A stretch of 64,000 bases of DNA, taken from positions 96,001 to 160,000 of the forward strand of contig JAZQOV010000002.1 in the NCBI GenBank assembly GCA_045628045.1, read 5' to 3'. The position numbers were made by a program, and so were the translations under genes. This document shows, one piece after another, positions 19,481 to 60,953 of the stretch. The DNA comes from Bacilli bacterium (GTDB lineage: Bacteria; Bacillota_I; Bacilli_A; RFN20; CAG-826). The notes beneath the pieces were generated by a model. It did no database searches. It was not told the DNA's origin and saw nothing but the letters and a program-made list of their open reading frames with translations. Numbering within the stretch: the stretch's first letter is position 1; each line of letters begins with the position of its first letter.

Positions 19481-20344
19481 ATGAATAATTATACAGCCGC
19501 AATTGCAAGCTTTGTAAGATTCGATGTTGTTGTTTTCAATACTCTTGAATACGCAATGAAGAAAGACAAATACGACATTCAAGCATACAAGGCACGTAAA
19601 GAAGTTATTACAACTGAAATTACACAAAACACACCACTTAAGAATTGTTTAGACAACTCTGGTGATGCTGGTAAAAATTTACTCGAAAAAATCAATGCAC
19701 TTTTAGAACTTATCTACTCTGAAAAATCAACCATCGTTAAACTTTCACAAGATGGAAATGAACTCAGAGTTGACTACTCTCAAGCTATTGCTATTTTCGA
19801 AGCAGTTCTTCCAATTCACGAAGAACTCCGCAAAATCATCTTCGCACACGTAAGCGCAGCCGAAAAAGCACAAATGGACGATGAAGCAACCTTCCCAGAT
19901 GTATTGAACAAGGAAGAATACTTCTACCGTGGACTTGTTAACATGTTAATGTTAGAAGAACTTGATCATCAATTTGCAGAATATAATAAAGCAAGACAAG
20001 AAGCAAAAGGCGGAATTACTCCACAATCTAACTTCATTCAAAATGATATTAATCGTTTAGTTAAACTCTTCCATCTTGTAAGAGATGCTGCTTCAGCACG
20101 TAGTGAAGAATACTATGAAGTCATTGATCCATTATTTGCTCTTATTGAAATGACTGGTGGACGTAGAGATCTTCCTAAAGGAAAGAACTTCGCAGATATG
20201 TTCGTTTCTGTTAAGAAGATTGCAAGAGAAAAGACCACAAAATGGGAACTCGAATGGAAGCCAGCTTATGAAGCTTTCATGAAACACTTCACAGAAGAAA
20301 TCGTTAAGATGCAAAACAAAGAAAAGGAAGGAGTTAAGGCATAA
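19481..20344 (+). CDS. Hypothetical helical protein
   Basis: 287-aa ORF with RBS AAAGGA; no motif recognised. Confidence 0.75.
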   Translation: MNNYTAAIASFVRFDVVVFNTLEYAMKKDKYDIQAYKARKEVITTEITQNTPLKNCLDNSGDAGKNLLEKINALLELIYSEKSTIVKLSQDGNELRVDYSQAIAIFEAVLPIHEELRKIIFAHVSAAEKAQMDDEATFPDVLNKEEYFYRGLVNMLMLEELDHQFAEYNKARQEAKGGITPQSNFIQNDINRLVKLFHLVRDAASARSEEYYEVIDPLFALIEMTGGRRDLPKGKNFADMFVSVKKIAREKTTKWELEWKPAYEAFMKHFTEEIVKMQNKEKEGVKA

Positions 20345-20358
20345 TCGCCAAATTGAAT

Positions 20359-20733
20359 ATGAAAAAAGTCACTGTTAAAGAATTTATTTGGTACGCAGGT
20401 TGTGCGTTAGTTGCTGTCCTTGGTCTTATTGCAATTACCTTTGGTATTGTTGGCTACTATATGCCATCAACTGCAGAAACAGGCAACTTTGTTGAAGTCT
20501 TTGAAAATAAGATTCACTTTGAATTAAGATGGGCTGGATTAATCGCAGTTGCGGCAGCAGTTGTTGTCTTCATTATTTGCTTACTTGTTAATGCAAAGAA
20601 AGCAGACAGAGACGTTGAAAAGAAACTTCGTCGTGAACAAAGAATTGCAGCAAGTGCTAATAGCACAATTGAAGTTAAGAAGGCTGTTGAGGTTATTGAA
20701 GAAGCTCCAGCTGAAGAGCAAAAAGCTCAATAA
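20359..20733 (+). CDS. Hypothetical 2-TM membrane protein
   Basis: Two hydrophobic helices and a charged tail. Confidence 0.7.
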   Translation: MKKVTVKEFIWYAGCALVAVLGLIAITFGIVGYYMPSTAETGNFVEVFENKIHFELRWAGLIAVAAAVVVFIICLLVNAKKADRDVEKKLRREQRIAASANSTIEVKKAVEVIEEAPAEEQKAQ

Positions 20734-20755
20734 TTACTTCGAAAAATTAAAAATC

Positions 20756-20780
20756 AAAAAGTGTCAATTTGGCACTTTTT
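20756..20780 (+). terminator. Terminator or operator palindrome upstream of HTH-ugd
   Basis: AAAAAGTGTCA-ATT-TGGCACTTTTT. Confidence 0.55.
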
Positions 20781-20816
20781 CTTTTACTTGCGAATTACCT
20801 TTGGTATAATTCAGTT

Positions 20817-22076
20817 ATGACCTTAAAAGAAGTTCGCAAGTTAAAACATATAACTCAAGAAGAAGCCGCTTCTATTTTAGAGGTTCCTTTAAGAACATAT
20901 AAAAGATACGAGAATGATCCAAAATATTTTGAATCATATAAATATGAGGCTGCAGTTTTAAAACTTAAAAATTATAAAGGTAAAACAAAGAAAACAAGAA
21001 TTAAAATAAATAAAGATAATCTACTTATTGTAGGCGCGGGATTTGTAGGTTCTGCGTGCGGAGAAGTTTATTCAAAAAGATTTGATATTACTTTTGTGGA
21101 TATTGATGAAAATAAGCTTCAATCTCTTAAGGGCAAATATAAAGTCTCAAATAGTATTGAAAAGATAAAAGAAATCTCAAATGTTTTACTTTGCCTTCCT
21201 ACTGATTATGATGAGGAAACAAAAACATATAAGACAGATGCTATTGAAAGCTCAATTGAGTCAGTTTTAAAAGTTAATCCAAACGCATTAATTATTGTTA
21301 AATCTACAGTTGCTGTTGGATACACAAATTACCTTTCAGAAAAGTTCAATCATCCAATTTATTTTATGCCAGAATTTTTAAGAGAAAAATATGCGGTGGA
21401 AGATGCAAAAAGACCGATTAGGTTACTTGTTGGCGCAGACAAAATAACCGGGAATTTACGAAAATTTTCAGAAAATATCGAGAAATCTCTTGATATTCCA
21501 ATGAGGACAAGTTTTGTTTCAAATAAAGAAGCTGAAGCAATTAAATTATTTTCAAATTCGTATCTTGCAATGCGTGTTTCTTTCTTTAATGAATTAGATC
21601 AATTTGCAATGGAAGAAGGCATGAATTCTAAGGCTATTATTTCCTCACTAGGCTTAGATGATAGAATTGGTGATTCTTACAATAATCCAAGCTACTGTTA
21701 TAGTGGTTATTGTCTTCCAAAAGATGTCAAAGTTCTAGGTGGCCAAACTGTTGGCACTCTTCTTAAAGCTATTGATAAATCAAATGCTGATAGGAAGAGG
21801 TCAATTGTAAACAGCATCATTTTTAAAGCTTATGAATTATCAAAAGATCCTGTTATTGGAGTTTATAAAACAGATTTTTCTAAAGAAAGACACATTGATA
21901 GCCTTTCTGAAATTCATGAACTTTTAAAGAAACATAGAATTAAGACATTACTTTATACTGGCAAAGATGAATCTTTAGAGGAGTTCGCTAATAAATCAAC
22001 TCTCATTATTTGTGAGAAAATGTCAAAAGAACTTCTTGAGTATAAAAATAAAGTATACACACGTAACATAAAATAA
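20817..22076 (+). CDS. ugd: XRE-HTH fused UDP-glucose 6-dehydrogenase
   Basis: N-terminal TQEEAA..L.VPLRTYKRYE HTH; GAGFVG, VKSTV, PEFLRE, EAIKLFSN, GYCLPKD with catalytic Cys; short divergent C-domain. Confidence 0.88.
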   Translation: MTLKEVRKLKHITQEEAASILEVPLRTYKRYENDPKYFESYKYEAAVLKLKNYKGKTKKTRIKINKDNLLIVGAGFVGSACGEVYSKRFDITFVDIDENKLQSLKGKYKVSNSIEKIKEISNVLLCLPTDYDEETKTYKTDAIESSIESVLKVNPNALIIVKSTVAVGYTNYLSEKFNHPIYFMPEFLREKYAVEDAKRPIRLLVGADKITGNLRKFSENIEKSLDIPMRTSFVSNKEAEAIKLFSNSYLAMRVSFFNELDQFAMEEGMNSKAIISSLGLDDRIGDSYNNPSYCYSGYCLPKDVKVLGGQTVGTLLKAIDKSNADRKRSIVNSIIFKAYELSKDPVIGVYKTDFSKERHIDSLSEIHELLKKHRIKTLLYTGKDESLEEFANKSTLIICEKMSKELLEYKNKVYTRNIK

Positions 22077-22167
22077 ATTAATAGTTCGACAAAATGTGCA
22101 ATTCTTGCAGTTTTTCTTTACTTTTTTCTTTAATACTATACTATGTATAACAAAGAGAGGTGCAATT

Positions 22168-23361
22168 ATGACATTAAAAGAAACTCGCAAAAATTGCAAA
22201 TTAACACAAGAAGAAGCCGCAAAAGTAGTCGGAACTTCCTTAAGAACTTATGTTGCTTATGAAAAAGATGAAGCAAAAGCTGATCATTTAAAACTCACAA
22301 GAATGATTGAAATCTTAAATGAATATGCAGCAAAAGATACATCAATCTTAAAAGACAAGGTCTTATTAATTACTGGTGGTACCGGTTCATTTGGCCACGC
22401 TGTAGTTGATAGATTCTTAAATACTGAGATTAAAGAAATCAGAATTCTTTCACGTGATGAAAAGAAACAAGATGATATGAGAAAGGCATACAACAATGAA
22501 AAACTTAAATTCTACATTGGTGATGTCCGTAACTTATCAAGCATTGTAGATGCATTCAAGGGTGTTGACTACGTTTTCTCTGCAGCAGCACTTAAACAAG
22601 TTCCATCATGTGAATTCTATCCAATGGAAGCTGTCAGAACTAATGTTATTGGTTCAGATAACGTTATTACTGCATGTGTTCAAAACCATGTTAAGAAAGC
22701 AATCTTCTTATCAACGGATAAGGCAGCATATCCAATTAACGCTATGGGTATTTCAAAAGCTTTAATGGAAAAGAATGTTGTCGCAAGATCAAGACAACTT
22801 CTCAAAGATGATACTGTTTTATGTTTAACACGTTATGGAAACGTTATGGCCTCACGTGGTTCAGTTATTCCTCTATTCCTTCAACAAATTCATGATGGAA
22901 AACCAATCACAATCACAAATCCAGAAATGACAAGATTTATGATGACACTCGATGATGCTGTCGATTTAGTCCTTTACGCCTTTGAACACGGTGAACAAGG
23001 TGACTTATTCGTCCAAAAGGCTCCTGCTGCCACAATTGAAACACTTGCTAAAGCAGTTATTAATTTAACAGGATCAAAAACTGGTATTTCATATATTGGA
23101 ACACGTCATGGTGAAAAGTTATATGAAACTTTAGTCACTCAAGAAGAAATGTTACGTGCAGAAGACATGGGTAACTTCTTTAGAGTGTGCGCAGATAATA
23201 GAAACCTTAACTACGATAAATACTTTACCAAAGGTAATAAGAAGTTAAATATTGGTGATTCATACACATCACATAACACTGGTAGACTTGATGTTAAAGG
23301 AATGGAAAAACTCCTTAAGAAACTTGAACTTTTTGGTGGACCAGTTAAACAACACGAATAA
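22168..23361 (+). CDS. fnlA: XRE-HTH fused UDP-GlcNAc 4,6-dehydratase/epimerase (FnlA/CapE)
   Basis: HTH TQEEAA..VGTSLRTY..YE; TGGTGSFG, SRDEKKQ, AAALKQVPSCEF, STDKA.YP.NAMG.SK, RYGNVMASRGSV. Confidence 0.92.
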   Translation: MTLKETRKNCKLTQEEAAKVVGTSLRTYVAYEKDEAKADHLKLTRMIEILNEYAAKDTSILKDKVLLITGGTGSFGHAVVDRFLNTEIKEIRILSRDEKKQDDMRKAYNNEKLKFYIGDVRNLSSIVDAFKGVDYVFSAAALKQVPSCEFYPMEAVRTNVIGSDNVITACVQNHVKKAIFLSTDKAAYPINAMGISKALMEKNVVARSRQLLKDDTVLCLTRYGNVMASRGSVIPLFLQQIHDGKPITITNPEMTRFMMTLDDAVDLVLYAFEHGEQGDLFVQKAPAATIETLAKAVINLTGSKTGISYIGTRHGEKLYETLVTQEEMLRAEDMGNFFRVCADNRNLNYDKYFTKGNKKLNIGDSYTSHNTGRLDVKGMEKLLKKLELFGGPVKQHE

Positions 23362-23424
23362 AATTCGAAAATCAAAATACGAAAAATTTGCGTATTAAAA
23401 AATGAAAAAGCGCAAAATAAGATT

Positions 23425-24525
23425 ATGAAAGTTTTAGTTACAGGATCAAATGGTTTTATTGGAAAACACATGACCAAAGCCTTATTAAAGGCTGGTTATG
23501 AGGTTTTCCCATACGATATTGATAAAACAGAAGAAGACTTAGTTAATTATATTAATGAGACTGATTTTGTTGTTCATTTAGCAGGTATTAATCGACCACT
23601 TACTACTGAAGAATTTTATAATGGGAACACTAACTTCACTAAAAAGGTAGTGGATTTAATAAAAGAAAGTGGTCGAAATACTCCTATAATCATGTCTAGC
23701 TCTATTCAAGCAGCATTAGATAATGATTATGGAAAATCTAAAAAGATGGGAGAAGACTTCTTATTTAAGTCTGGACTTCCTGTCTTTGTATTTAGACTTG
23801 CTAATGTATTCGGAAAGTGGTGTAGACCAAACTACAATAGCGCGGCTGCTACATTTATGTATAACATAGCGCACAATCTTCCTATTGAGATTAGAGATAG
23901 AAATTACGTTGTCCATTATAACTATGTCATTGACATTGTTAATACATTCTTAGAATGCATAAAAGGAAACATTAAGCCTTCAAAAGAAGTGTTATCTGTT
24001 TCTCCAGTTCACGATTGTTCACTTGGCACTTTAGCGGACACTCTTACCTACTTTAAAAACACTGTGGAATCAGATGAACACTTACCTCTTATTAAAAATG
24101 AGTTTGAGTTTAAGTTATTTGTCTCTTTCATGGATTATCTTTCTGAGGAAGGCTATTCCTTTAACTTCGCGGAAGATGCACGTGGATCATTTGAAGAAAT
24201 ATATAAATCAAAAAAATATGGTCAAATTTCACTAAATACATCTTTCCCTGGAATCACTAAAGGTGGTCATTATCACACTTACAAAAATGAAATATTCATG
24301 ACCGTTAAAGGTGATTGTGTTACAAGACTTAGAAAGATTGGAACCTCCGAAATACTTGAATATCCTCAACATGGAAAAGATTCAACAAGGGTTAAAATCA
24401 TTCCAGAATACACTCACGATATTAAAAATGTTGGAAGTGAAGAATCAGTTACTATAATGTGGATTTCTGAAGTTTACTCTGATAAGACTCCAGACACATT
24501 TAGAGAAGACGTCGATATTAAATAA
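23425..24525 (+). CDS. fnlB: FnlB/CapF SDR plus cupin (UDP-L-FucNAc pathway)
   Basis: TGSNGFIG, HLAGINRP, YGKSK, NVFGKWCRPNYNS, cupin D.RGSF and KGGHYH. Confidence 0.92.
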   Translation: MKVLVTGSNGFIGKHMTKALLKAGYEVFPYDIDKTEEDLVNYINETDFVVHLAGINRPLTTEEFYNGNTNFTKKVVDLIKESGRNTPIIMSSSIQAALDNDYGKSKKMGEDFLFKSGLPVFVFRLANVFGKWCRPNYNSAAATFMYNIAHNLPIEIRDRNYVVHYNYVIDIVNTFLECIKGNIKPSKEVLSVSPVHDCSLGTLADTLTYFKNTVESDEHLPLIKNEFEFKLFVSFMDYLSEEGYSFNFAEDARGSFEEIYKSKKYGQISLNTSFPGITKGGHYHTYKNEIFMTVKGDCVTRLRKIGTSEILEYPQHGKDSTRVKIIPEYTHDIKNVGSEESVTIMWISEVYSDKTPDTFREDVDIK

Positions 24526-24544
24526 TAAATATAGGAAAAAGATA

Positions 24545-24571
24545 AAAGCACTGGGAATTCCCGGTGTTTTT
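24545..24571 (+). terminator. Terminator after fnlB
   Basis: AAAGCACTGGG-AATT-CCCGGTGTTTT. Confidence 0.65.
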
Positions 24572-24706
24572 CATAATCTTTTGCCTATATTTACATAATT
24601 TTCTCGTATTACAAAATGTGTTGACTCTTCTAAATAATATAGTTGTCCCTAGTAGATAGAGCTCATCTATTAGGAACACTTAATATTAAGAAAGGAAAAT
24701 CAAATT

Positions 24707-24916
24707 ATGTTTGTATTACTTAAACTTATGGGATGCGTAGTATGGATCACTGCAATTATTCTTGCATTTGTCTTTATTGGAAAATCTGTTAGCGCATTTC
24801 GTAATGAAGATACTACTGGTTCAAAAGTAGGATGGATCTTGGCAACAATTGCTAACTTAATAATTGGTGCTGGTATTGGATTACTTTTCTACCAAGTAGC
24901 AGCACTTATTAAGTAG
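24707..24916 (+). CDS. Small 2-TM membrane protein
   Basis: 69 aa, two hydrophobic helices, strong RBS AGAAAGGAAA. Confidence 0.7.
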   Translation: MFVLLKLMGCVVWITAIILAFVFIGKSVSAFRNEDTTGSKVGWILATIANLIIGAGIGLLFYQVAALIK

Positions 24917-24943
24917 TTATAAAACTTTTGGAGGTAAGAAAAT

Positions 24944-25186
24944 ATGAAAACAGCCAGAAGATTTTATAAAGCGATTGCTTGCATTGTGGCTATGTTATTT
25001 ATCGCAACACTAGTGTTATACATAATCTTAATGATTAGGTCATTCACAAGAGGTGTTGATGGACTAACTGCAGGCTTTCTAGTAGTTGGTATTATCGCAT
25101 TACTTATCGTTGTGCCTACACTTGCTAACTTTTTTATGGGAAGAGGCTGCAAGTGCGATAAATACCATCTAAATCAAAAAGAATAA
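24944..25186 (+). CDS. Small 2-TM membrane protein
   Basis: 80 aa, RBS GGAGG, followed by a GGACAC/GTGTCC terminator. Confidence 0.7.
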   Translation: MKTARRFYKAIACIVAMLFIATLVLYIILMIRSFTRGVDGLTAGFLVVGIIALLIVVPTLANFFMGRGCKCDKYHLNQKE

Positions 25187-25365
25187 CTCACCCTCCCGAG
25201 TTTATCTTATGGACACATCCGTGTGTCCTTTTCTTTTGTTTTTGTCGCATTTGTCGCAACAATTTGAAGTATTACTAATACGAAAATTTAATCATGTCGT
25301 ATAAATTGCGACACAAAACAACAGAAAATATTGCAAAATTATGACAAATGCCATAAACTTTAGGC

Positions 25366-26688
25366 ATGGAAAAATTAATATCACAAAGAAAAGACCTTGG
25401 ACTTACTCAAGGCGAAGCCGCAAAGGCACTTGGAGTTTCACTTCGTACATATCAAAGATATGAGAGTGAAGGAACTCTTGATGAAACAAAATTAAATAAG
25501 ATCTGTGCGGATCTAAAAATGAAATGTGGCAAAGTCACATATAAAGGATTTTTAGACAATGGAAAACTCAAACTTTTAATTATTGTTGGAACAAGACCAG
25601 AAATCATTCGTCTTGCTGCAGTAATAAATAAATGTAGAGATTACTTTGATGTCATTTTAGCGCATACAGGTCAAAACTATGATTACAATCTTAATGGTGT
25701 TTTCTTTAAAGACCTTGGAATCAAAGATCCAGATGTTTACTTAAACGCAGTTGGAAAAGATCTTGGGGAAACCATGGGAAATATCATTGCAAGATCATAT
25801 GAGCTTATGGTGGAGATTAAACCAGACGCAGTTTTGGTTCTTGGAGACACAAATTCATGTCTTTCAGTAATTGGAGCAAAACGTCTTCATATTCCAATCT
25901 TCCATATGGAAGCTGGAAATAGATGCAAAGATGAATGTCTTCCAGAAGAAACAAACAGAAGAATTGTTGATATTATCTCTGATGTTAACCTCGCATATTC
26001 TGAGCATGCACGCAGATATCTCGCGGATACAGGACTTCCAAAAGAAAGAACTTATGTTACAGGTTCACCAATGGCGGAAGTTCTCACCAATAACATTAAA
26101 CAAATTGAATCAAGTGATATTTTGACTCGCTTGAATCTAAAAAAAGGAAAATACATTCTTCTTTCCGCACATCGTGAGGAAAATATTGATACAGAGAAAA
26201 ACTTCTTGTCCTTGTTTAACGCTATTAACAAGATGGCAGAGATTTACGATATGCCAATCTTGTATTCATGCCATCCAAGAAGTAAGAAAAGACTTGAATC
26301 ATCAAAGTTTAAACTTGATGAAAGAGTCATCATGCATGAACCACTTGGATTCCATGATTACAATAACTTACAAATGAATGCTTTCTGTGTTGTATCTGAT
26401 TCAGGTACTCTTCCAGAAGAATCAAGCTTCTACGCAAGTATTGGTAAGCCAATTGCGGCAGTTTGTATTAGAACATCCACTGAAAGACCAGAAGCTTTAG
26501 ATGATGCTTGCTTCGTTTTAGCGGGTATTGATGAAAAGAATCTTCTTCAAGCAGTGGAAGTAGCAATCAAAAACAAAGCTGGATGTCATCCAGTAGATAA
26601 TTACGTAGACACGAACGTATCAGACAAAGTTGTTAAGTTAATACAATCTTATGTTGGTGTTGTTAATAAAATGGTGTGGAGAAAATAA
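25366..26688 (+). CDS. fnlC: XRE-HTH fused UDP-sugar 2-epimerase (FnlC/CapG)
   Basis: HTH TQGEAA..LGVSLRTYQRYE; GTRPEIIRL, HTGQNYD, LGDTNS, HMEAGNR, PEETNR, HREEN, SDSG. Confidence 0.92.
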   Translation: MEKLISQRKDLGLTQGEAAKALGVSLRTYQRYESEGTLDETKLNKICADLKMKCGKVTYKGFLDNGKLKLLIIVGTRPEIIRLAAVINKCRDYFDVILAHTGQNYDYNLNGVFFKDLGIKDPDVYLNAVGKDLGETMGNIIARSYELMVEIKPDAVLVLGDTNSCLSVIGAKRLHIPIFHMEAGNRCKDECLPEETNRRIVDIISDVNLAYSEHARRYLADTGLPKERTYVTGSPMAEVLTNNIKQIESSDILTRLNLKKGKYILLSAHREENIDTEKNFLSLFNAINKMAEIYDMPILYSCHPRSKKRLESSKFKLDERVIMHEPLGFHDYNNLQMNAFCVVSDSGTLPEESSFYASIGKPIAAVCIRTSTERPEALDDACFVLAGIDEKNLLQAVEVAIKNKAGCHPVDNYVDTNVSDKVVKLIQSYVGVVNKMVWRK

Positions 26689-26819
26689 TCCACACCTTTT
26701 TTATAATGTTGAAATAGTTTTTTGCCAATAGACCGAATAGGTTGTATTGGTGAATTTTAATAAAACTCTTTCATATTATGAATACATATGCTATCATATG
26801 TTTGCAAAAGGAATCAGTT

Positions 26820-27275
26820 ATGGCATTTAATCAAAGAGAATACACAAACGATTACAACAAAAATACATATAAAATGTATCCTTTTAGGGTGAAGCAAAAC
26901 TCTACCTCAGTTATTGAGAAGCTTAAATCTGTGCCAAGTATGAACGCATATGTTCTCTCACTAATTGAAAATGACATTAATCCAGGTGTATTAACTCTTA
27001 AGATGATAAAAGATCGTATTTTGCCTGTGTTAAATAAGCATAACATTAACGAGGTTTATTTGTTTGGGAGCTATGCTCGTGGAGAAGCAAATAGGGATAG
27101 CGATTTAGATATATATTGTGAAAAAGGTGATATAAAGTCATTCATTGATCAAGAAATGCTTGAAGATGAGCTTAAAAACGCATTAGGGAAGGATGTTGAT
27201 ATTGTTTTTATTGGATCCAAGATGGATGATTTCTTTAAATCACAATTAGAAGGAGATAAAATTAGAATATGTTAA
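26820..27275 (+). CDS. Minimal nucleotidyltransferase antitoxin (MntA-like) with N-terminal extension
   Basis: LFGSYARGE..DSDLDI, VDIV; ACATATG-N4-CATATGT palindrome at 26784-26801 over the promoter. Confidence 0.88.
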   Translation: MAFNQREYTNDYNKNTYKMYPFRVKQNSTSVIEKLKSVPSMNAYVLSLIENDINPGVLTLKMIKDRILPVLNKHNINEVYLFGSYARGEANRDSDLDIYCEKGDIKSFIDQEMLEDELKNALGKDVDIVFIGSKMDDFFKSQLEGDKIRIC

Positions 27276-27613
27276 CAATTAAAGAACAAGGCTTATTGCT
27301 CGGAATAATAAAACACTGTGATAAAATTCTTGAAAAGATTAATAGAATTACAAGAGTTCAATTTGATGAAGACGAGGATGTTATTCAGATTGTCTGCTTT
27401 AATATTTTGCAAATTGGAGAACTTGTAAAACATTTTGATGTTTCTTTCACAAGCAAATTTAATGAAGTCCCATGGAGTTTAATTGCACGCATGAGAGATA
27501 AAGTCGCTCATGGATATGGAACAATTGATATTGATATAGTGTGGGGAACCGCAACAAAAGATATATCTTCTTTAAAAGCCTATTGTGAAAAGATTCTTAA
27601 GGAAAATATATAA
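27269..27613 (+). CDS. HEPN/DUF86 ribonuclease toxin (HepT-like)
   Basis: QIGE, PW..IARMRDKVAHGY (RX4HXY); overlaps the MNT gene. Confidence 0.9.
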   Translation: MLTIKEQGLLLGIIKHCDKILEKINRITRVQFDEDEDVIQIVCFNILQIGELVKHFDVSFTSKFNEVPWSLIARMRDKVAHGYGTIDIDIVWGTATKDISSLKAYCEKILKENI

Positions 27614-27749: not shown

Positions 27750-27884
27750 CTGCTAGAGGATGATAACACAGTAAAATTGAATTGCATAATAAGTATGATG
27801 TGTTAAAATAGCACTAGAAAATTTGAATAACTAAGTTAAATAAATTTGCAAAATTAAAATGATATATTATTGCAATTAGAGAAA

Positions 27885-28664
27885 ATGAATAGAAAAACAT
27901 TCGAAGGATCAATTACTATTGAACATGAAGGCATAACTTATTATGTTTCAGATCTTTCCTATACAATTTGGGAAGATGATTCTTTTGAATTCGTGTTTAC
28001 TCCTAATTATTTTGTTATTGATTTACTTCCAACAAGCGTTTTTCAAGGAATTCCTGGATTAAATCTTGATGAAAGAAAAGAAAAGTATGTTCGCAAAAAC
28101 ATAATGCCGACATTTATTTCTGAAAGAGTTCCTCAAAAAAATAGGGAAGATTTCTTTGAACTTCTAGAAGAAGCTGGTATGGACTATTTAAATCCAATTG
28201 AATATTTGCTAAAAACAAAAAAACAATATAGCGGTGATCCTCTCAAACTTAAAGAAAAGAACGTTAAAACATTAGTGAACATAAACGAATTAGCAGTTAA
28301 AAACAACACATTTGGATTAACAAAAATAATTTTGGATAATCTCGCTAAAGGAAATGATGTTTTCTATGAGGGATCAATTATTGATAACACTAATAGAAAA
28401 GCATTCTTTAATGTTCTTCATGCTTTATATGTAAAAACTTTAAAGGGAAGAGAAGCTACTAGAAATGCAGGAATAGAAAAAGCAAGACAATCTGGTAAAT
28501 ATAAAGGAAGAAAACCAGTTCAAGTTGATATGGTTTTATTTAATGAATCACTCAAAGATATTTCTAATGGAGTAATTAGTGTTTCAGAAGCATGTAAAAG
28601 ACTTAATATCTCCGTGGATAAATTCTATCGTGTTAGAAAAATAGTTAATAAAGAATCTAAGTAA
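27885..28664 (+). CDS. Hypothetical: HipA-N-like domain plus resolvase-type C-terminal arm/HTH
   Basis: FISERVP..NRE...LL...G; C-terminal AGIEKAR..GKYKGRKP..ACKRLNIS..FYR; no YxRxS catalytic domain. Confidence 0.55.
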   Translation: MNRKTFEGSITIEHEGITYYVSDLSYTIWEDDSFEFVFTPNYFVIDLLPTSVFQGIPGLNLDERKEKYVRKNIMPTFISERVPQKNREDFFELLEEAGMDYLNPIEYLLKTKKQYSGDPLKLKEKNVKTLVNINELAVKNNTFGLTKIILDNLAKGNDVFYEGSIIDNTNRKAFFNVLHALYVKTLKGREATRNAGIEKARQSGKYKGRKPVQVDMVLFNESLKDISNGVISVSEACKRLNISVDKFYRVRKIVNKESK

Positions 28665-28773
28665 AGATAACACCTCTTAAGCATTGAACGTAATTTATAA
28701 GTGAAATGCTAGGTGTTTTCTTTTATTCTTTTCTCATTAGAGAAGCGTATCAAGTTCTTGCAGGTCAAGAAAA
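28663..28773 (+). repeat. Repeat A copy 2 plus module B
   Basis: Starts inside the upstream stop codon; followed by TTTTCT..TAGAGAAGCGTATCAAGTTCTTG..CAAGAAAA. Confidence 0.92.
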
Positions 28774-28826
28774 ACGCAAAATAATAACCATTTGCTAATC
28801 AAAGCAAAGCAAAATGTTAGTTTAAG

Positions 28827-28865
28827 AAGGTAGATGTTGACAATGTACCTTCCGAAACTTACAAT
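28827..28865 (+). promoter_or_regulatory. Sigma-A promoter with overlapping inverted repeat (candidate AbiEi operator)
   Basis: TTGACA-17-TACAAT-6-ATG; AAGGTA.AT...AT.TACCTT spans the -35. Confidence 0.7.
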
Positions 28866-28871
28866 ATAGTC

Positions 28872-29423
28872 ATGATTTACACAACGAAACAACTTCTTAA
28901 AAAACACAAAAACAACACAAGTATTAACAGAATGGAGAAATCCGGAAAACTTTTTAGGGTTGCTCAGGGTGTTTATTCTGACGAACAAACTAATGTTGCG
29001 GATTTAGAAAGCATATTTCTTGTGTATAAAAATGCTATTTTAACTAACGAAAGTGCATTTGCCTTTTATGAATTAACCGACAACATTCCTGAAAAGTACT
29101 CAATAGTAACTCCACTTAAGTCACATAGAATTAGCTTTAAAGGTGTTGAGCAAAGCTATATGCAAGATTCAATTTTAAAAATTGGATTAACTAAAGCAAA
29201 AACAGAGTATGGATATATTAATATATATGACAAAGAAAGATTACTTGTTGAATTGTTTAGACTCCGCAACAAGTTTTCTTATGAGCTTTACAAAGAAGTA
29301 GTGGCAAATTATAGAAAACTTGCTATAGAAAATAAAATAGATTTTCTTAAGGTTTTTAAATATTGCGATAAGTTCGCATATGGCAAGACGATAAGAAAGA
29401 TTATTGAGGAGGTAATCATATGA
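28872..29423 (+). CDS. abiEi: Type IV TA antitoxin AbiEi
   Basis: G.L.RV..GVY, SAF.FYELTD.IP, IYDKERLLVE. Confidence 0.85.
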   Translation: MIYTTKQLLKKHKNNTSINRMEKSGKLFRVAQGVYSDEQTNVADLESIFLVYKNAILTNESAFAFYELTDNIPEKYSIVTPLKSHRISFKGVEQSYMQDSILKIGLTKAKTEYGYINIYDKERLLVELFRLRNKFSYELYKEVVANYRKLAIENKIDFLKVFKYCDKFAYGKTIRKIIEEVII

Positions 29424-30226
29424 AAACAATCAGTGAACTTGTAAAAGATAAAATAAATCTTTTTAATATGAATAGAGTTGAGGCAGAGAGCTATGTTTGC
29501 CAAGAAATTATAATCAATAAAATTGCCAAATCTGAGCTTGTTGATAGAACATTCCTAAAGGGTGGTGTTGTGTTGTTTAACATGTCAAAGAATGAACGCC
29601 GCACAACAAGAGATATTGATTTTGATTTAGCACACTACGATATATCCACAGAAGAATCTATGAAAAACTTGGTTTACATGTTAAATAAAAGAGACTCTGA
29701 ATACGTTGTTACCTACATTAAAAGTGATCAGCTACATCAAGACGATTATAAAGGCAGAAGACTTTATCTCAAAGTGTCTGATAAAAGTGCTACATTAAAA
29801 ATTACGATTGATGTGGGTGTTCACACTTTATTTGCAATTAATCAACTTGATTCAATTTTTACATTTAATAATGACAATAACAAAGTAGTGGTTAAAGTGA
29901 ACCCACCTGAGCAAATGATAGCAGAGAAACTTTATTCTTTAGCAAAACACACTATAGTGTCACAAAGATATCGTGATCTTTATGATGTATATTACCTTCT
30001 AAAGAACACTAAAGTTGAAAAGAAGGTAGTTCGTCAATGTTTTGAATTGCTTTTAATTAATAATATGCATGGTTTTAATGATTTGAGTGATGTTATCTCT
30101 AGAATTGATGAAACCCTCTCAAATGAAGTGTTTAAAGAAAGAACTGAAAATGCTTCTAAGAAATGGATTGATATTGACTATCTTACTTTAAAAGAAACAA
30201 TTCTCAATTTGTTATATAACATCTAA
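29420..30226 (+). CDS. abiEii: Type IV TA toxin AbiEii nucleotidyltransferase
   Basis: LKGG, RRTTRDIDF, IAEKL, RYRDLYD. Confidence 0.9.
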   Translation: MKTISELVKDKINLFNMNRVEAESYVCQEIIINKIAKSELVDRTFLKGGVVLFNMSKNERRTTRDIDFDLAHYDISTEESMKNLVYMLNKRDSEYVVTYIKSDQLHQDDYKGRRLYLKVSDKSATLKITIDVGVHTLFAINQLDSIFTFNNDNNKVVVKVNPPEQMIAEKLYSLAKHTIVSQRYRDLYDVYYLLKNTKVEKKVVRQCFELLLINNMHGFNDLSDVISRIDETLSNEVFKERTENASKKWIDIDYLTLKETILNLLYNI

Positions 30227-30233
30227 TAACTTT

Positions 30234-30347
30234 AAAGATAACACCTCTTAAGCATTGAACGTAAGTTATAAGTGAAATGCTAAGGTGTTTTCTTTTATCT
30301 CTTTTCTTGATAGAGAAGCGTAGCAATTTCTCGTATGACAAGAAAAG
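30234..30347 (+). repeat. Repeat A copy 3 plus module B
   Basis: Near-identical to copy 2, a few nt after the abiEii stop. Confidence 0.92.
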
Positions 30348-30615
30348 CCTCAATTTAATATATAGAAATTTATTTACTTAATGAAGACGTTTGTTAATGT
30401 AAGTATAGAGTTCACCCATGATAGTTAATGACTTCGCCTAGTGGGAACTTTTTTATTTACTATTTAGTTTTTTCAAATATAATGTAAATAGCAGGACATG
30501 AGCGAATTAAGTTTCGAGGGGCCTGCTTTTAATTTACTTTATTTCCGATATTTTCCGTTTTTTGTCTGTTTTTGAAAGAGAAACATTAGCAAATTCTCGT
30601 ATAACAAAAAAGATG

Positions 30616-31425
30616 TTAAATTTTGATTCCTGAAATGTCTAAGAAATTATCGATTGAGAATCCTGGCATGTAATTACATGTGGATATGTCCGTTCCAAGT
30701 TTGTTAAACGACTCCCCAAAATGATATGCCTTATCATCAACAAACAAATATCTATCGTGAAACTTATCAACCTTTATTACCTTATATTTGTCTGATTCAA
30801 ATGATTCGTTCTTTGGATGAGTAATTACCACAACCTTTGCTGGGCTGTGTAATAAAATTTCATCAAATGTGTGATCAAAATAGTTATCAATGATTACTAT
30901 TAATTTTTTAGCACTTTTCAATATTTCTTCTAACATAAACAAGGCATCAATACGATTGGCTTCTTTTAGTGTTAAGGATTTGTTTTGGAAATCTTTAATT
31001 TCGTAAATTTGATTTTGAAGATCAATAATTTTTTCTTTGCATTCTAAGCAAGAAAAGTTGGGTTTTGCAAAAATGTATTGTTTTAAAACATAATTTGCCC
31101 ATTGTCTAAATAACGTTCCTCTCTTTCCGTTCACTCTATAGCCCACAGATAAGATAACATCCAGGTTATAAAGGTCAATTTCTCTAGAGACGTTTCTTTC
31201 ACCTTCTAATTGAACAGTTGCATTTTTTGCAACAGTTGAAATTCTTAATAGTTCGTTGCTGTTATAAATATTATTTATGTGTCTAGAAATTGTTGATTTA
31301 TTCTTTTCGAAAAGAGCAGCAATATCATTCAATGAAAGCCATACAGTATCTTCCGTTGGAGAAACATTAACTGGCAATGAAAAGTCTCCATCTTTGAATG
31401 TTAAGATTTCAAATTTTTTGTCCAT
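30616..31425 (-). CDS. RhuM/virulence-family DNA-binding protein with PLD-like C-terminal domain
   Basis: TVWLS...IA.LF..TISRHI.NI, YNLDVILSVGYRV..RG..FRQWA; IIDNY..FHDRYL..YHFGES. Confidence 0.8.
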   Translation of the reverse strand: MDKKFEILTFKDGDFSLPVNVSPTEDTVWLSLNDIAALFEKNKSTISRHINNIYNSNELLRISTVAKNATVQLEGERNVSREIDLYNLDVILSVGYRVNGKRGTLFRQWANYVLKQYIFAKPNFSCLECKEKIIDLQNQIYEIKDFQNKSLTLKEANRIDALFMLEEILKSAKKLIVIIDNYFDHTFDEILLHSPAKVVVITHPKNESFESDKYKVIKVDKFHDRYLFVDDKAYHFGESFNKLGTDISTCNYMPGFSIDNFLDISGIKI

Positions 31426-31598
31426 TTTAGGTTCCTCCTTATATTAAAAATAACAATCTTTTAATCGAACAAGATTGATGCGGTTTTTGCATCTGTGTAA
31501 ATTATAATATGCACGCATTGAAAAGACAAGCATAAATTGAAAATATTTTATTTATTTTTTGCATAATGTTAAAATGATGCAGTAAGGGGAAAATAGGT

Positions 31599-31931
31599 AT
31601 GGATAAATTAGAGGAAGAAATTTCAGAACGTATTAAAGAAATGATGGAAAAGCGTAAGGTCACTCAAAGTGATCTTGCTAGTGAGCTTGGAGTGCACCAA
31701 TATGACATTTCACGCATGTTAAACGGCAAGCCTTTTCCATCTATTTCTCAATTAAAATTGATAGCGAACTATCTTGATTGTTCTTTGTATTATCTAATTG
31801 GAATACAAGAAGAATCATATCGTGAGCTATCACCTGAAACTAGAAAGATAGCTAATGCATATCAATGCGCTAATGAAACCATTAAAGCAGTAGTAGATCT
31901 GGTACTCACAAATAAAAAGATAAGTAAATAA
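31599..31931 (+). CDS. XRE-family transcriptional regulator
   Basis: TQSDLA..LGV....ISR..NG..PS...L..IA..L. Confidence 0.9.
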   Translation: MDKLEEEISERIKEMMEKRKVTQSDLASELGVHQYDISRMLNGKPFPSISQLKLIANYLDCSLYYLIGIQEESYRELSPETRKIANAYQCANETIKAVVDLVLTNKKISK

Positions 31932-35723: not shown

Positions 35724-37673
35724 ATGATAATATCGAATGAACTTATTAAATCTTATATAGAAATTATTAACAATCACAAAAGTAAAGTTGAGAGCATTGC
35801 AAACATGTTTGCTTCAAGTTCGTCTGAATTTAAGACTTTATTGCAAGAATATAACGATATTTGCAAACCCGATCCAAATTTTATTAATTTTAATTTTGAA
35901 AGATATCTTATTTTTTCTGAAAAAGTAAAAGATTTCAGTAAATATGTTTTAAACTTAAGTACATTTAATGAGATTATTGGTAGACTTGCTGAAACTGATC
36001 TTAGTAATGCTTATTACAAATTGATTAAGCATTTCATTGAAACTTTAAAATCTAATGATTTTGATTACTGTTATGAGAATTCACTTAATTATAAAGCAGC
36101 TTCTGACACTGTCACAAAATTAAATTGCATACTTAATTCTTTTAACAATAATATGACCGATTTTATTACCAATAATCAGAAAAATTTAGAACCAATATTT
36201 CTTTTTTACGATTTAAAAGAAATCAAAAACAATATAACTTTAATTGGAACTAATGGTTCTGGAAAAAGTAGGTTTTCTAGACAATTGTTAACGTTTAGTG
36301 ACAATCCAAATTTCGTTGTTATTGCCGCCCAACATTTTTTGGGTTTTGAATTAGATGGAAAAGTAGATTTGAATGCTGGTGGAATTAATTTAGATGGTTA
36401 TCAGAAAAGTGACAAGCTTAGCGTTAGTGCAAGCGATCAATTCTATCAAAAAGAATTTGGCGTTTTAATGAACAAACTGAGAAGCGAACATATTAGAGAA
36501 AGGTATACAAAAGGGGTCGTATCAACAATTTTTAACAAAGTTAAAGAATTGTTTCATGAGTTAATACCAGCAAGAGAAATAGAATATGATTTTGACACTT
36601 CGAAGTTTTATGCTGTCCCACCCAATGGTATTAAATATGATGTTAATAATATGAGTGATGGTGAAAAAAGCATTCTATTTTATATTCTTCATATTATATT
36701 TTCTGATGAGCATTCCTTTATAATTGTTGATGAACCTGAAAATCATCTTCATTCAGATATTTGCACAAGATTGTGGGATAAACTTGAAGAAATCAGACCA
36801 GACTCTATTTTTATTTACCTGTCTCATAATATAGATTTTATTGCATCGCGCAAAAATTCAACGATTATTTGGAACAAAAAGTTCGATTATCCACAAAAAT
36901 GGGATTTCGAATTACTAAAAGACAATGAATTGCCAAAACAACTTTATTTAGAAATACTTGGAACAACGCCGCCTGTTTTGCTTTGCGAAGGCTGCAAGAA
37001 TTCTAAAGACATTAAAGTATATGAGGAGTTATTTAGTGACTATAAAATTAGACCATGTTCAAGTTGCAACGATGTTAAAGAATATGTAAAAACAATAAAA
37101 AGATTAGATGTTTTTAAAAATAAAACAGTGAATGGAATTATTGACTTAGATACACGAAACGAAAAAGAAGTTGAACATTGCGTTAGGGATGGAGTTTTTG
37201 TTTTGAATGTAGTTGAAATTGAAAATCTTCTTTTTGTGCCAGAATTATTAGACAAAATATTTGATAAGTATTCTAGTGATGAACAGAAAAATAATTTTTT
37301 TGATTCCTTTTATAGTAAAGCAAGTGAAGAATTGCCAAGGATGGTAAATAGAACTTTAAAAGATTATTTCGTTAAGGATGTTCAAAGCAATGATAGGGAC
37401 TCTTTTGCTGAACAGGTTAACACCAAATATAAAGCAATAAGTTTTGCTGACCAGGTAAGCGCGAAGAAAACTGAGCTTGAAAACGAATTTAGAGAGATTA
37501 TTGAAACTAGAAATTATGATTGCGCGTTAAAGAAATTCGATTTCAAAAATCAACTCTATTATATAGGCGAATCAATTATAAGAGATTATTTAGAGAAAGC
37601 GGTCGATATTCTTCACTCTGATAAGGCTTTAGCTGATTTAATAAAAGCAAAGTATATCAGAACAAATATTTAA
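35724..37673 (+). CDS. ABC-type ATPase fused to DUF4435/TOPRIM-like domain (fused PARIS/OLD-like defence protein)
   Basis: GTNGSGKS, MSDGEK, IIVDEPENHLH, SH; then LLCEG...D, GIIDLD, EIEN. Confidence 0.75.
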   Translation: MIISNELIKSYIEIINNHKSKVESIANMFASSSSEFKTLLQEYNDICKPDPNFINFNFERYLIFSEKVKDFSKYVLNLSTFNEIIGRLAETDLSNAYYKLIKHFIETLKSNDFDYCYENSLNYKAASDTVTKLNCILNSFNNNMTDFITNNQKNLEPIFLFYDLKEIKNNITLIGTNGSGKSRFSRQLLTFSDNPNFVVIAAQHFLGFELDGKVDLNAGGINLDGYQKSDKLSVSASDQFYQKEFGVLMNKLRSEHIRERYTKGVVSTIFNKVKELFHELIPAREIEYDFDTSKFYAVPPNGIKYDVNNMSDGEKSILFYILHIIFSDEHSFIIVDEPENHLHSDICTRLWDKLEEIRPDSIFIYLSHNIDFIASRKNSTIIWNKKFDYPQKWDFELLKDNELPKQLYLEILGTTPPVLLCEGCKNSKDIKVYEELFSDYKIRPCSSCNDVKEYVKTIKRLDVFKNKTVNGIIDLDTRNEKEVEHCVRDGVFVLNVVEIENLLFVPELLDKIFDKYSSDEQKNNFFDSFYSKASEELPRMVNRTLKDYFVKDVQSNDRDSFAEQVNTKYKAISFADQVSAKKTELENEFREIIETRNYDCALKKFDFKNQLYYIGESIIRDYLEKAVDILHSDKALADLIKAKYIRTNI

Positions 37674-37907
37674 TTATTAGATATTATTTCCTTTAGTGGT
37701 TAATTATATTTGATATAAATATTGGTAGAGCCTGTTATTTAAATACTTAGAGATTAAGCACCATTTACATATGGTGCTTTATTTTCTCTTTTGCAAAAGA
37801 GTCGGTAATTAATGCTATTTCATTACGTATTTATGAAGTGGCTATCTAGGTGAGATACGCCACATTGGTGAAGTCTATTTATTGCTCGTGTATCCACTAG
37901 CGAGCAA
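37669..37907 (+). repeat. Repeat F copy 1 with hairpin modules
   Basis: TAATTATTAGATATTATTTCCTTTAGTGGTTAATTATATTTGATATAAATATTGGTAGAGCCTG overlapping the upstream stop. Confidence 0.9.
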
Positions 37908-37981
37908 CAATACGAATTCACCCCACTGGGTAGGGTAATATATGGTGTTTAATGAAATGAATTATGGTGTATAATAAAGAA

Positions 37982-39136
37982 ATGACTAATTCAATTTTAA
38001 TAATTGGAAACGGCTTCGACCTAGCTTGTAACTTAAAGTCAAAATTTTCAAATTTTTTAACTGATGAAAAACTTGAACAATTACGTGCTAATCCATACTC
38101 TTGTGAAAATTTCTGGTATTTATTATCTGCATTAAAATTCAATAAAAATGCTGACAACGAAGAAAATCATATATTCCCCATTCTTGCAAAAGACGATTAT
38201 CTTTGGATGGATATTGAATCTTTGATTAAAGAAGTTTCAACTTCTAAATTACCAAGGTATTACGCACAATTTTTCAAAGAAAATAATTATTTAGCGCTTT
38301 TCACTTCCGCTTTTGTGAATAGAAATAATAATATGTTTTTGGCTAAAGATAATGAATTTTCTTACTTACGAATGTTTTTTATAAAAAGATTTCCCAATAT
38401 TTTTGAGCAAACAATCAATATAATTGATTTCTTGAAATTAGAATTAGAAAAATTTGAAAGAACATTTGCTGCATATTTAATTGAGTCAATTAGAACAACT
38501 GATAATTATTACGAAAAAGCATATGAACTTTTTGGTTTTTTGGGTTGCACTGGAGTGAATCCTGATTTTTTGATTGATTTTAATTACACACACGATGACG
38601 AAAAATTTAATGAATTATTTGGAAACGATAATAGAATTTTTATTCATGGTTCGGTTAAAAATAAGCCTATTATCGGATTCGATTCTTCTAATATTTCTAG
38701 TGATGCACCCGTGTTATTGAGTAAAGCATGGCAGAAAATGTCATCAAATATTAGTGGTGTAAAGCTGCCACAATTTGACGAAGAATTTGAGATTAAATTT
38801 TTCGGTCATTCACTTGGTGAACAAGATTACTCATATTTTCATGCATTATTTGATCGCTATGATATTTATAATAAAAAGGTTTCTCTCTGTTTTATCTATA
38901 GCCGATATAAGGATGATGAAAAAGAGAATGATGAAATAACAAAAACATATTGTAATGATGTTTATAAATTATTAAATGATTATGCATTGAGAAGTGGAAA
39001 AGAAAGTAATTACAGAACATTAATTAGTAGATTACAAATAGAAAACAGGTTACACATTTATGAATTAAAAGAGTATGTAAAAAGTCATTCTTTTTCCGAA
39101 CAATTCAAAGAAATAAAAGCAAAAGGAAATGAATAA
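37982..39136 (+). CDS. AbiH-family abortive infection protein
   Basis: IIGNGFDL, W.DIE, FNYT, IHG, GHSL..D..YF. Confidence 0.85.
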   Translation: MTNSILIIGNGFDLACNLKSKFSNFLTDEKLEQLRANPYSCENFWYLLSALKFNKNADNEENHIFPILAKDDYLWMDIESLIKEVSTSKLPRYYAQFFKENNYLALFTSAFVNRNNNMFLAKDNEFSYLRMFFIKRFPNIFEQTINIIDFLKLELEKFERTFAAYLIESIRTTDNYYEKAYELFGFLGCTGVNPDFLIDFNYTHDDEKFNELFGNDNRIFIHGSVKNKPIIGFDSSNISSDAPVLLSKAWQKMSSNISGVKLPQFDEEFEIKFFGHSLGEQDYSYFHALFDRYDIYNKKVSLCFIYSRYKDDEKENDEITKTYCNDVYKLLNDYALRSGKESNYRTLISRLQIENRLHIYELKEYVKSHSFSEQFKEIKAKGNE

Positions 39137-39242
39137 AGACACTATGAATCGCCTAATAGATTTAATTGATTTAGATAAATATAATGATGAACCTGAGTAT
39201 AAGGCTACTTTAGAGGAATTCTTTTCTTCTTTAGATGATTAA
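39129..39242 (+). CDS. Putative 37-aa acidic peptide
   Basis: AAAGGA RBS, ATG overlaps the end of abiH; MNKDTMNRLIDLIDLDKYNDEPEYKATLEEFFSSLDD. Confidence 0.4.
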   Translation: MNKDTMNRLIDLIDLDKYNDEPEYKATLEEFFSSLDD

Positions 39243-39289
39243 TACTTTTTGAAATATTAAATATAATTAACTTCTAATTTATATCTATT

Positions 39290-39481
39290 ATATTAGGAAC
39301 CTTATGGTTCCTTTTATTTTAATTATTAGATATTATTTCCTTTAGTGTTCAATTATATTTAATATAAATATAAGATAAGGTAAATAAGAATTAATAGGTA
39401 GCAATTATTGCTACATTTTTAATCTTTTTTGCAATTAATAAATGTGAGCGTAGTTTACTAGTGAACAGATTTGCAAAAGAG
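39290..39481 (+). repeat. Repeat F copy 2 plus module C
   Basis: AGGAACC-TTAT-GGTTCCT-TTTATTTT then the F body; C at 39424-39481. Confidence 0.88.
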
Positions 39482-39575
39482 CCGGCGGTGGTAGCCTTAT
39501 ATATCGTTTTCAATATATTGAAATGAGGTACACGATAAAAATATGCCGAAATTAATTTATAAGTTTTTCTCTTAG

Positions 39576-39765
39576 AGAATATAAGAAGAGTCATATCGTG
39601 AACTAGCACCCGAGACTAGAAAGATAGCTAATACATATCAATCTACTAATGATGCAGTCAAACGAGTTATTAACTTAGTACTATTGAATAAAGACTCAAT
39701 CAATTGATAATGATAACAGCCGATTAAGCACTAATAAAATTTGAAAATGGATGCAAGTGTTGTTT
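39576..39765 (+). pseudogene. Remnant of XRE regulator 3' half plus decayed repeat A
   Basis: Translates I*EESYRELAPETRKIANTYQ...LVLLNK versus IQEESYRELSPETRKIANAYQ...LVLTNK of 31599-31931. Confidence 0.88.
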
Positions 39766-39920
39766 GAACAAACGAAATTTATTAACATAAAGTGATAATT
39801 ACAGGGAATTTCCTTTATAAGGAGGAGTGTTTCAAATTTTAGTCCTTTTTCAATTTTGTGAAAAAAACTTGCACAAAAATGAATAATCGTGTAATCTTTA
39901 GATAATATCGAGGTAAACAC

Positions 39921-41180: not shown

Positions 41181-41185
41181 TTAAA

Positions 41186-47190: not shown

Positions 47191-47209
47191 GAATCAAATT
47201 TAGGAATTT

Positions 47210-47935: not shown

Positions 47936-47982
47936 ACTTTTAGTAGATTTTTATAGTAAATCTATGTTTATATAATATAATC

Positions 47983-49254: not shown

Positions 49255-49271
49255 TAGAGGTCGAAACTCAG

Positions 49272-50366: not shown

Positions 50367-50369
50367 TTT

Positions 50370-51395: not shown

Positions 51396-51398
51396 AGT

Positions 51399-53899: not shown

Positions 53900-53987
53900 T
53901 TTTATTTAAAATAAACGTTACTACATTATAATTGCAAAGTGGTAGCGTTTTTTATATTATATAAAAGTAACAAGGGAGGGGATAATT

Positions 53988-54848: not shown

Positions 54849-54851
54849 ACT

Positions 54852-56345: not shown

Positions 56346-56347
56346 AT

Positions 56348-58558: not shown

Positions 58559-58560
58559 AT

Positions 58561-59871: not shown

Positions 59872-59882
59872 AGGATTGTTTT

Positions 59883-60944: not shown

Positions 60945-60953
60945 GGCGCAAAA

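Follow-up and report, generated by a model that had tools for sequence, protein, structure and literature searches.

XRE-type helix-turn-helix heads on three nucleotide-sugar enzymes of a Bacilli locus, with candidate operators at their own predicted promoters

BirA, NadR and PutA are enzymes with a fused DNA-binding domain and an operator before their own gene. RbkR follows the same plan (PMC5397151), pairing an enzyme and its fused DNA-binding domain with a palindromic operator before the enzyme's own gene. The window analyzed here, a 64,000-nt stretch from a Bacilli bacterium (positions 96,001 to 160,000 of contig JAZQOV010000002.1, assembly GCA_045628045.1), holds three enzymes of nucleotide-sugar metabolism, Ugd, FnlA and FnlC, each with an N-terminal helix-turn-helix (HTH) head of the XRE type. 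Comparison of the locus with its relatives suggests that these antitoxin-type heads bind matching sites at their own promoters and repress their own genes, a reading that we consider probable.

Fusion of XRE heads to Ugd, FnlA and FnlC

The fused genes, the gene for the headless partner enzyme FnlB and the predicted control sites are arranged as follows.

20761..20775, + strand: predicted operator of the Ugd head, an Arg-class 6-N3-6 palindrome embedded in the hairpin (20756-20780) predicted to terminate the upstream gene
20783..20810, + strand: predicted ugd promoter with extended -10, a consensus match (scan 10/12 with TG) and not a mapped start; 6 nt before the ATG, leaderless
20817..22076, + strand: HTH-Ugd, 419 aa; XRE head at about residues 1-51, linker, UDP-glucose 6-dehydrogenase
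22096..22110, + strand: predicted operator of the FnlA head, a non-Arg-class 6-N3-6 palindrome located 72 nt upstream of the ATG
22168..23361, + strand: HTH-FnlA, 397 aa; CapE/WbjB-like UDP-GlcNAc 4,6-dehydratase/5-epimerase, leading the fnlA-fnlB unit, with a Shine-Dalgarno sequence
23425..24525, + strand: FnlB, headless; CapF/WbjC-like reductase
25243..25313, + strand: four upstream half-sites with the FnlC-type word
25331..25359, + strand: predicted leaderless fnlC promoter, read by eye (8/12, under the scan threshold); its spacer holds a 6-N2-6 palindrome (25341-25354)
25366..26688, + strand: HTH-FnlC, 440 aa; CapG/WbjD-like 2-epimerase, its own transcription unit

The N-termini match Pfam HTH_3 above the curated cut-off (Ugd 24.8 bits, FnlA 29 bits, FnlC 32 bits) in frame with UDPG_MGDP_dh in Ugd, Polysacc_synt_2 in FnlA and Epimerase_2 in FnlC, and the Pfam scan gives no HTH_3 match for FnlB. 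The first-pass annotation had read in-frame heads on the three enzymes, all of one XRE subfamily, and a headless FnlB; these matches and the conservation of the fusions in relatives bear it out. It had also noted similar DNA at the 5' ends of ugd and fnlA. This pair is indeed the most alike of the three, but only modestly so, at 63% over 102 nt compared with 53% and 55% in the remaining pairs.

The region 20300-26750 is also contained whole in a 10,822-nt contig of a different public sequencing run, which differs by 128 substitutions and two gaps, both intergenic. Because this independent contig spans the locus without frameshifts, an assembly artefact is excluded, and the recurrence of the fusions in relatives likewise rules out split genes. 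A check for head and enzyme encoded apart in relatives found fusions instead: HTH-FnlA is present in 33 of 36 congeners, two of the remainder being cut by contig ends and one lacking a full match. Translation from a start downstream of the head is unsupported, since no usable internal start was found. Codons 2-80 of ugd contain no ATG, GTG or TTG, and the single internal ATG codons of fnlA (codon 46) and fnlC (codon 52) lack a clear Shine-Dalgarno sequence; the one in fnlA is not conserved and reads as Ile in 16 of 33 copies.

FnlA occurs in 151 of 251 family genomes, with the head covered by 70 of the 150 matches listed. Selection on the FnlA head is purifying, with a pooled ratio of nonsynonymous to synonymous substitution of 0.20 versus 0.064 for the enzyme part at synonymous sites near saturation, and head residues R7, Q14, R26, Y31 and E32 are invariant in 33/33 copies. 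Of 37 genomes in the genus, 5 encode HTH-Ugd, and the fusion makes up 70 of the 120 best database matches. Its neighborhoods vary, several adjoining fnl genes; the nearest database records with the Ugd fusion are, by their titles, uncultured Bacilli from ruminant and horse gut, and the order metK-hpf-orf-orf-ugd is shared with a record titled Candidatus Fiminaster equi. HTH-FnlC is encoded at 7 of the 36 loci with fnlC, the window's included. All seven headed genes have about 66-179 nt free upstream; the head is absent from the other 29, of which 27 lie within about 14 nt of the preceding gene. FnlC is thus headed only where its gene is predicted to start its own transcript (7/7 versus 0/29).

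Predicted operator sites and their likely recognition by the heads

A 15-bp palindrome of the form 6-N3-6 recurs upstream of genes for headed proteins. Blind scoring reaches a score of at least 8 at 54% of 102 loci and in 3% of shuffles; blind palindrome picking without a matrix missed many FnlA sites and all FnlC sites. The word of the site follows the recognition helix, R-T/S-Y-x-X-Y-E, in which Arg at X is paired with GYCA-N3-TGRC, all other residues there with GCAA-N3-TTGC. Helix position x tracks the outer two bases, with Lys at GT in 115 of 124 half-sites, Gln at AC or GC in 24 of 28 and Arg at AG in 8 of 10; where x is Val or Ile the outer bases are AT or GT. Matrices for the two operator classes were trained only on the promoters of 45 MNT antitoxins, nucleotidyltransferase proteins with the same head that are described below. 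They call the class correctly for 43 of these 45 in leave-one-out, for 14/14 Ugd, 32/32 FnlA and 2/7 FnlC loci, and for 67/67 held-out non-duplicate loci, where several scores for AAA fusions are weak. Fixed patterns, written after the data had been seen, find one site class at 125 of 163 loci, all 125 in agreement, and no site at 38.

Genes with and without the head provide the comparison that carries the argument. Fused ugd has an Arg-class site at 27 of 27 loci and unfused ugd at 0 of 15, and fused fnlA exceeds the shuffled 99th percentile at 28 of 32. Among fnlA genes of other genera, 20 fused and 20 unfused picked from the family match list, 19 of the fused and none of the unfused pass the 9.9-bit null threshold. 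One HTH-Ugd with a different recognition helix (L246:2262-3692), located behind an unfused fnlA, has no Ugd site and has GCGC-type half-sites; it may be regarded as a natural test that the site follows the head. For Ugd and FnlA the predicted site is present only with the head, which indicates that the operator tracks the fused domain.

FnlC loci follow a different layout. A site with a 2-bp centre (N2) lies at exactly -25 in four of seven, a right half-site at -17 is found by score in six of seven, the window carrying a variant half-site at this position, and half-site clusters occur at four of the seven fused loci with a shuffle p of 0.005 or less. This pattern is suggestive of a weaker, shorter-spaced operator of a 14-bp type.

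A -10-like hexamer directly precedes the ATG of 25 of 27 fused ugd genes and of 7/7 fnlC, a Shine-Dalgarno-like sequence is seen in 3 of 27 ugd, and fnlA has a Shine-Dalgarno sequence in 32 of 34. The site overlies the -35 region at 17 of 27 fused ugd loci, its start being 35-39 nt upstream of the leaderless ATG. This position and the self-repression reported for the MNT antitoxin SO_3165 (PMC4621449) are the reasons for thinking that binding would repress. The ribosome-binding region of fnlA (22160-22165) overlaps a half-site with the FnlA word in many, not all, relatives.

A scan of the source genome (1.07 Mb, 96% complete) ranks the window's ugd site first at 24.6 bits; the next scores 20.7. 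That second Ugd-type site lies outside the window (G000:C2:85592), 166 nt before an open reading frame (ORF) of 525 codons whose product has an N-terminal hydrophobic stretch, and may be chance. Nine of the top 12 sites fall inside ORFs. Seven other window genes, four of them in a glycan cluster, have no convincing operator, although weak sites may be missed. The highest score among them is 11.3 bits, at 23379-23393 in the 64-nt gap between fnlA and fnlB, for a palindrome-like word that resembles sites before HTH-AAA genes. Related contigs of another sequencing run lack this gap, and the word is possibly a relic site. A capsule-wide regulon was rejected, there being no site for it in the genome scan or before the glycan-cluster genes tested, and these searches found no regulon beyond each enzyme's own unit, with the limit that weak sites may escape. 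Therefore, the data point to self-regulation and not to a capsule regulon. The first-pass annotation had proposed enzyme-repressors that tie capsule-precursor pools directly to transcription: the repressor half of this idea gains comparative evidence from predicted sequence-specific binding at the enzymes' own promoters, but the extension to capsule genes finds no operator before the glycan-cluster genes tested. No terminator is called in the ugd-fnlA interval, and read-through could therefore extend the effect of the Ugd head to fnlAB.

A head-matched site at each enzyme's own predicted promoter, clear for two and weaker for the third, leads to the reading that each enzyme likely represses its own gene. 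The XRE head would bind the palindrome or half-sites at that promoter, and since each head would read a word of its own, the three feedback loops would operate in parallel. Self-regulation by DNA binding is highly probable for Ugd and FnlA and more likely than not for FnlC. Repression is the expected main effect wherever self-regulation applies, at a modest discount from the confidence placed in self-regulation itself.

Several results weigh against this interpretation. The window's fnlA site ranks only 6th genome-wide and its fnlC site lies outside the top 12; at N3 spacing none of the seven FnlC loci scores above the null and two are called in the right class, and the seven fused fnlC genes are probably one event. 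The window's ugd site doubles as a predicted terminator, and both this site and that of fnlA are placed immediately before the predicted -35, a position from which binding might also activate. At the HTH-GlnA locus and at most HTH-AAA loci no clear site is seen. The loci are kin and not independent, their searches favored the Ugd-type helix, and the link between residue and site amounts to four changes on the tree, with one independent pair on starred branches.

Proposed origin of the head and state of the enzymes

In the window's genome the head profile matches only Ugd, FnlA and FnlC. In congeners it also matches proteins of 152-167 aa in which the same head precedes a nucleotidyltransferase domain, often followed by HEPN genes, and these are identified by sequence as HTH-MNT antitoxins of HEPN/MNT pairs. 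For the one such protein tested, no NCBIfam model scores better than MntA, whose cut-off it narrowly misses. The genus has 21 HTH-MNT proteins, and Clostridia and other Bacilli have many others; the enzyme fusions were found under Bacilli-type record titles, and the antitoxins reach Clostridia and other groups. Enzyme heads and HTH-MNT antitoxins share subfamily and operator grammar. The breadth of the antitoxins and this similarity make it likely that the enzyme heads came from them. The three genes give no support for a recent duplication of a single 5' end, as each window head scores higher against its best MNT head than against the best heads of the other two enzymes (126 versus 96 and 90; 114 versus 89 and 78; 146 versus 128 and 91), these being best-of-many scores with the MNT set the largest.

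Quick trees (54 columns, rows thinned by identity, with a second tree that omits five long or odd rows) place the FnlC, Ugd and FnlA heads at three positions among antitoxin heads, FnlC beside antitoxins of the same genomes. But the approximately unbiased (AU) test does not reject a single clade of all enzyme heads (p 0.59), and the constrained tree is 6.4 log units better over the 54 columns. Because of this outcome, antitoxin origin and the number of captures fall short of proof. A homologue search with the FnlC head returned only the window's protein and one sharing its identical first 70 residues, and a profile search across 1.84 billion representatives yielded chiefly short proteins and multi-HTH repeat proteins. 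In the model the head is built of four helices (pLDDT, the predicted local distance difference test score, of 91) and lacks a fifth, dimerization helix. Its fold neighbors are C proteins, HipB, PezA and phage repressors, all weak, with nothing at an E-value of 0.001 or better in the fold search.

The same head is carried by other cargo, an AAA_14 ATPase and a glutamine synthetase encoded directly behind an fnl operon. The head of the glutamine synthetase fusion (L045:12948-14498) groups with FnlA heads (support 99 and 95) and looks like a recent copy of an FnlA-type head onto new cargo; the gene has no clear operator. The HTH-AAA_14 family (about 575 aa; L137, L152, L205, L216 and others) includes members with GCGC-type palindromes at -69. 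At two loci of one genome (L104 and L024, both G017) an HTH-MNT antitoxin and HTH-FnlC share a recognition helix, their sites differing in spacing (N3 and N2), and cross-talk between the toxin-antitoxin pair and fnlC is possible there.

The enzyme parts of FnlA and FnlC are those of recognizable family members. FnlA has TGxxGxxG, MxxxK, the Polysacc_syn_2C tail and linkage to fnlB and fnlC; it scores 533 bits against the TIGR04130 equivalog, below the cut-off of 730 yet with this still the best model by far. FnlC has GTRPE and EAGNR, scores 230 bits against TIGR00236 (non-hydrolysing 2-epimerase, cut-off 210) and has CapG 7ya2 as closest solved structure (E 5.7e-138). Ugd retains the NAD-binding and catalytic residues (GxGxxG, KST, PEFLRE, KLxxN, CLPKD). 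The catalytic motifs quoted in the first-pass annotation are all present in the translations, but the Ugd enzyme part is not fully canonical: its C-terminal domain, which still folds in the model, has no Pfam PF03720 match and no SDNxR, GYGGYC reads CYSGYC, and about 20 residues are gone from the NAD-binding domain. In S. pyogenes HasB this C-terminal domain binds UDP with contacts from a Lys and from the SDNxR Arg.

Ugd and 2-epimerases are dimers. CapE is a hexamer whose subunit interfaces change on ligand turnover (PMC3699295). The enzyme's own oligomer would therefore present paired heads, given a modelled head without a dimerization helix of its own. Motif retention in 33/33 FnlA proteins, in 36/36 rows for FnlC and in the Ugd core of 70/70 fused proteins favors a further step, in which these are true trigger enzymes whose DNA binding is switched by substrate, product or cofactor. 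So do the CapE interface shifts, the recurrence of the head on three enzymes of one pathway kind and the constant size of FnlA, which is exactly 397 aa in 33/33 full-length copies and so has a linker of fixed length. The idea would extend self-repression and not exclude it. It is opposed by the unrelated cargo of the head (MNT, AAA_14, GlnA), by the lack of sites before the glycan-cluster genes tested, by a Ugd linker of variable length that has the lowest confidence of the head-enzyme junction (pLDDT 69 in the model), and by SDNxR being kept in 27 of 70 fused versus 49 of 50 unfused Ugd. Given the unrelated cargo and the absence of operators before the other window genes, a portable self-regulation module fits at least as well as a metabolite sensor. 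Trigger enzymes are thus a tentative extension, and tuning of binding by UDP-sugars or NAD(P) a candidate only, with the balance tilted against it.

Erosion of the fused Ugd raises the question of whether HTH-Ugd is evolving towards a dedicated sensor-regulator or losing strength as an enzyme. Nine of the 70 fused proteins (328-343 aa) lack the C-terminal domain, GYGGYC is kept in 37 of 70, and the window's Ugd is 44-46% identical to its three closest congeners, compared with 92-93% for FnlA. HTH-Ugd proteins of 328-330 aa (L111, L171, L172) stop before this domain inside long contigs, and in two of these (L171, L172) the short protein is the only Ugd match in the genome. The conversion seems unlikely in view of Cys, Lys, Asn, Thr, Glu and Asp catalytic positions that are invariant or nearly so, a fused gene that is the sole Ugd match in the window's genome and in 15/15 genomes checked (several of them incomplete) and the absence of a regulon beyond its own promoter in the genome scan.

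An activator or C-protein-like switch, in which a first site activates through polymerase contact and further sites repress at higher protein levels, would account for the spacing at fnlA, most MNT genes and the window's ugd, where about 7 nt separate the end of the full site from the predicted -35 downstream of it. A half-site often lies in the spacer or at the ribosome-binding site with a second full site about 33 nt further up, and C proteins are among the top fold matches, none at an E-value of 0.001 or better. Sites that cover the -35 region or spacer at the 17 fused ugd loci noted above and at fnlC, together with a head model lacking the C-protein dimer helix, make such a switch improbable. 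That the heads are structural or vestigial and the palindromes terminators or chance is very improbable: the epoxidase HppE, whose XRE domain we take to be structural or vestigial, is among the fold neighbors and the window's ugd site does lie in a terminator-like hairpin, but a separate hairpin precedes the same site in three congeners, and the site is kept across different upstream genes and absent when the head is absent.

Self-repression thus remains the preferred reading. Under it the head, its promoter and its operator would have been acquired together as a portable 5' module, the widespread antitoxins being the likely source. Genes that open a transcript at a distance from the main glycan cluster would retain the head, with protein-level homeostasis as the default output. 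A bolder version is doubtful as a whole: gut and rumen Bacilli would have repeatedly bolted the antitoxin promoter-operator-head module onto oligomeric nucleotide-sugar enzymes, giving orthogonal, ligand-tuned enzyme-repressors with a specificity readable from two recognition-helix residues, with three of them inside a single 6-kb locus and HTH-Ugd part of the way towards being solely a sensor.

Two further features complete the locus.

24544..24571, + strand: predicted terminator, ending the (ugd)-fnlA-fnlB transcript
24707..25186, + strand: pair of small ORFs for hydrophobic proteins of 69 and 80 aa, in the fnlB-fnlC interval; a terminator-like hairpin comes next (25211-25228)

The small ORFs have homologues at 38-55% in three relatives (L024, L026, L027) that also have a gene for 685-694 aa and one for 510-524 aa before fnlC; they match no Pfam family above the cut-off. 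Directly after fnlC is an MNT-HEPN pair (26778-27613) with no operator of either class, and the N-terminal extension of its antitoxin is not an XRE head. A defence-like block at 27870-31931 holds a 264-aa ORF with a C-terminal HTH, an AbiEi/AbiEii pair (28872-30226), a RhuM-family gene and a stand-alone XRE gene, and a low-GC block at 35724-41884 holds ATPase-like and unknown genes with no NCBIfam match above the cut-off. The glycan cluster (46138-63277), about 20 kb from the fnl genes, encodes an aminotransferase, RmlB, RmlA, a flippase, a putative polymerase, two family 4 glycosyltransferases (GT4), a 241-aa XRE-headed protein of another subfamily and a 736-aa family 2 glycosyltransferase with a long C-terminal part. 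The WcaI-family GT4 encoded at 60954-62156 is a plausible L-FucNAc user.

Comparison with known systems

The best solved homologues of the window enzymes are 4j2o and CapE for FnlA and CapG 7ya2 for FnlC, placing them with S. aureus CapE/CapF/CapG (FnlABC), and 3phl/1dli of the HasB type for Ugd. Matches to these structures begin after the head, and the MxxxK motif is shared. Tuning of S. aureus CapE is by tyrosine phosphorylation (PMC6441080) and not by a fused head.

The XRE fold links the heads to C proteins (C.EcoT38I, C.Kpn2I, C.BclI) and HipB by weak matches only, and the site words differ. C proteins are stand-alone dimers with a fifth helix, are linked to restriction-modification genes, and use short palindromes with a 3-bp centre beside the -35 on leaderless transcripts. 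The window heads have no fifth helix in the model and no restriction-modification genes beside them.

The nearest relatives by head are the HTH-MNT antitoxins, which share head subfamily and operator layout with the window enzymes. The accessible part of the SO_3165 report (PMC4621449) names no helix-turn-helix, and the window enzymes differ from HEPN/MNT systems in having neither an MNT domain nor a paired toxin. Searches of titles and abstract openings in the open-licence literature turned up no description of these fusions or of XRE-headed MNT antitoxins. What this analysis adds is the co-occurrence of three fusions and three site words in a single locus, a connection to HTH-MNT antitoxins through which sites are cross-predicted, a rule that FnlC carries the head only when its gene comes first in a transcript, and the degeneration of Ugd in its fused form.

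If the interpretation is correct, one route to enzyme-regulators is the capture of a ready-made self-repression module from mobile toxin-antitoxin genes. Nucleotide-sugar enzymes would join the list of enzyme-regulators, and an uncultured lineage that is abundant in the gut would have feedback on its genes for surface-glycan precursors. Some 160 different heads, each with its upstream DNA, would offer a testable two-residue recognition code and possibly a kit of small orthogonal repressors. RbkR, BirA, NadR and PutA have demonstrated ligand control and usually a regulon, whereas the window enzymes have an XRE head and predicted sites found only at their own promoters. They also differ from RbkR-type regulators in that one type of head serves several unrelated enzymes.

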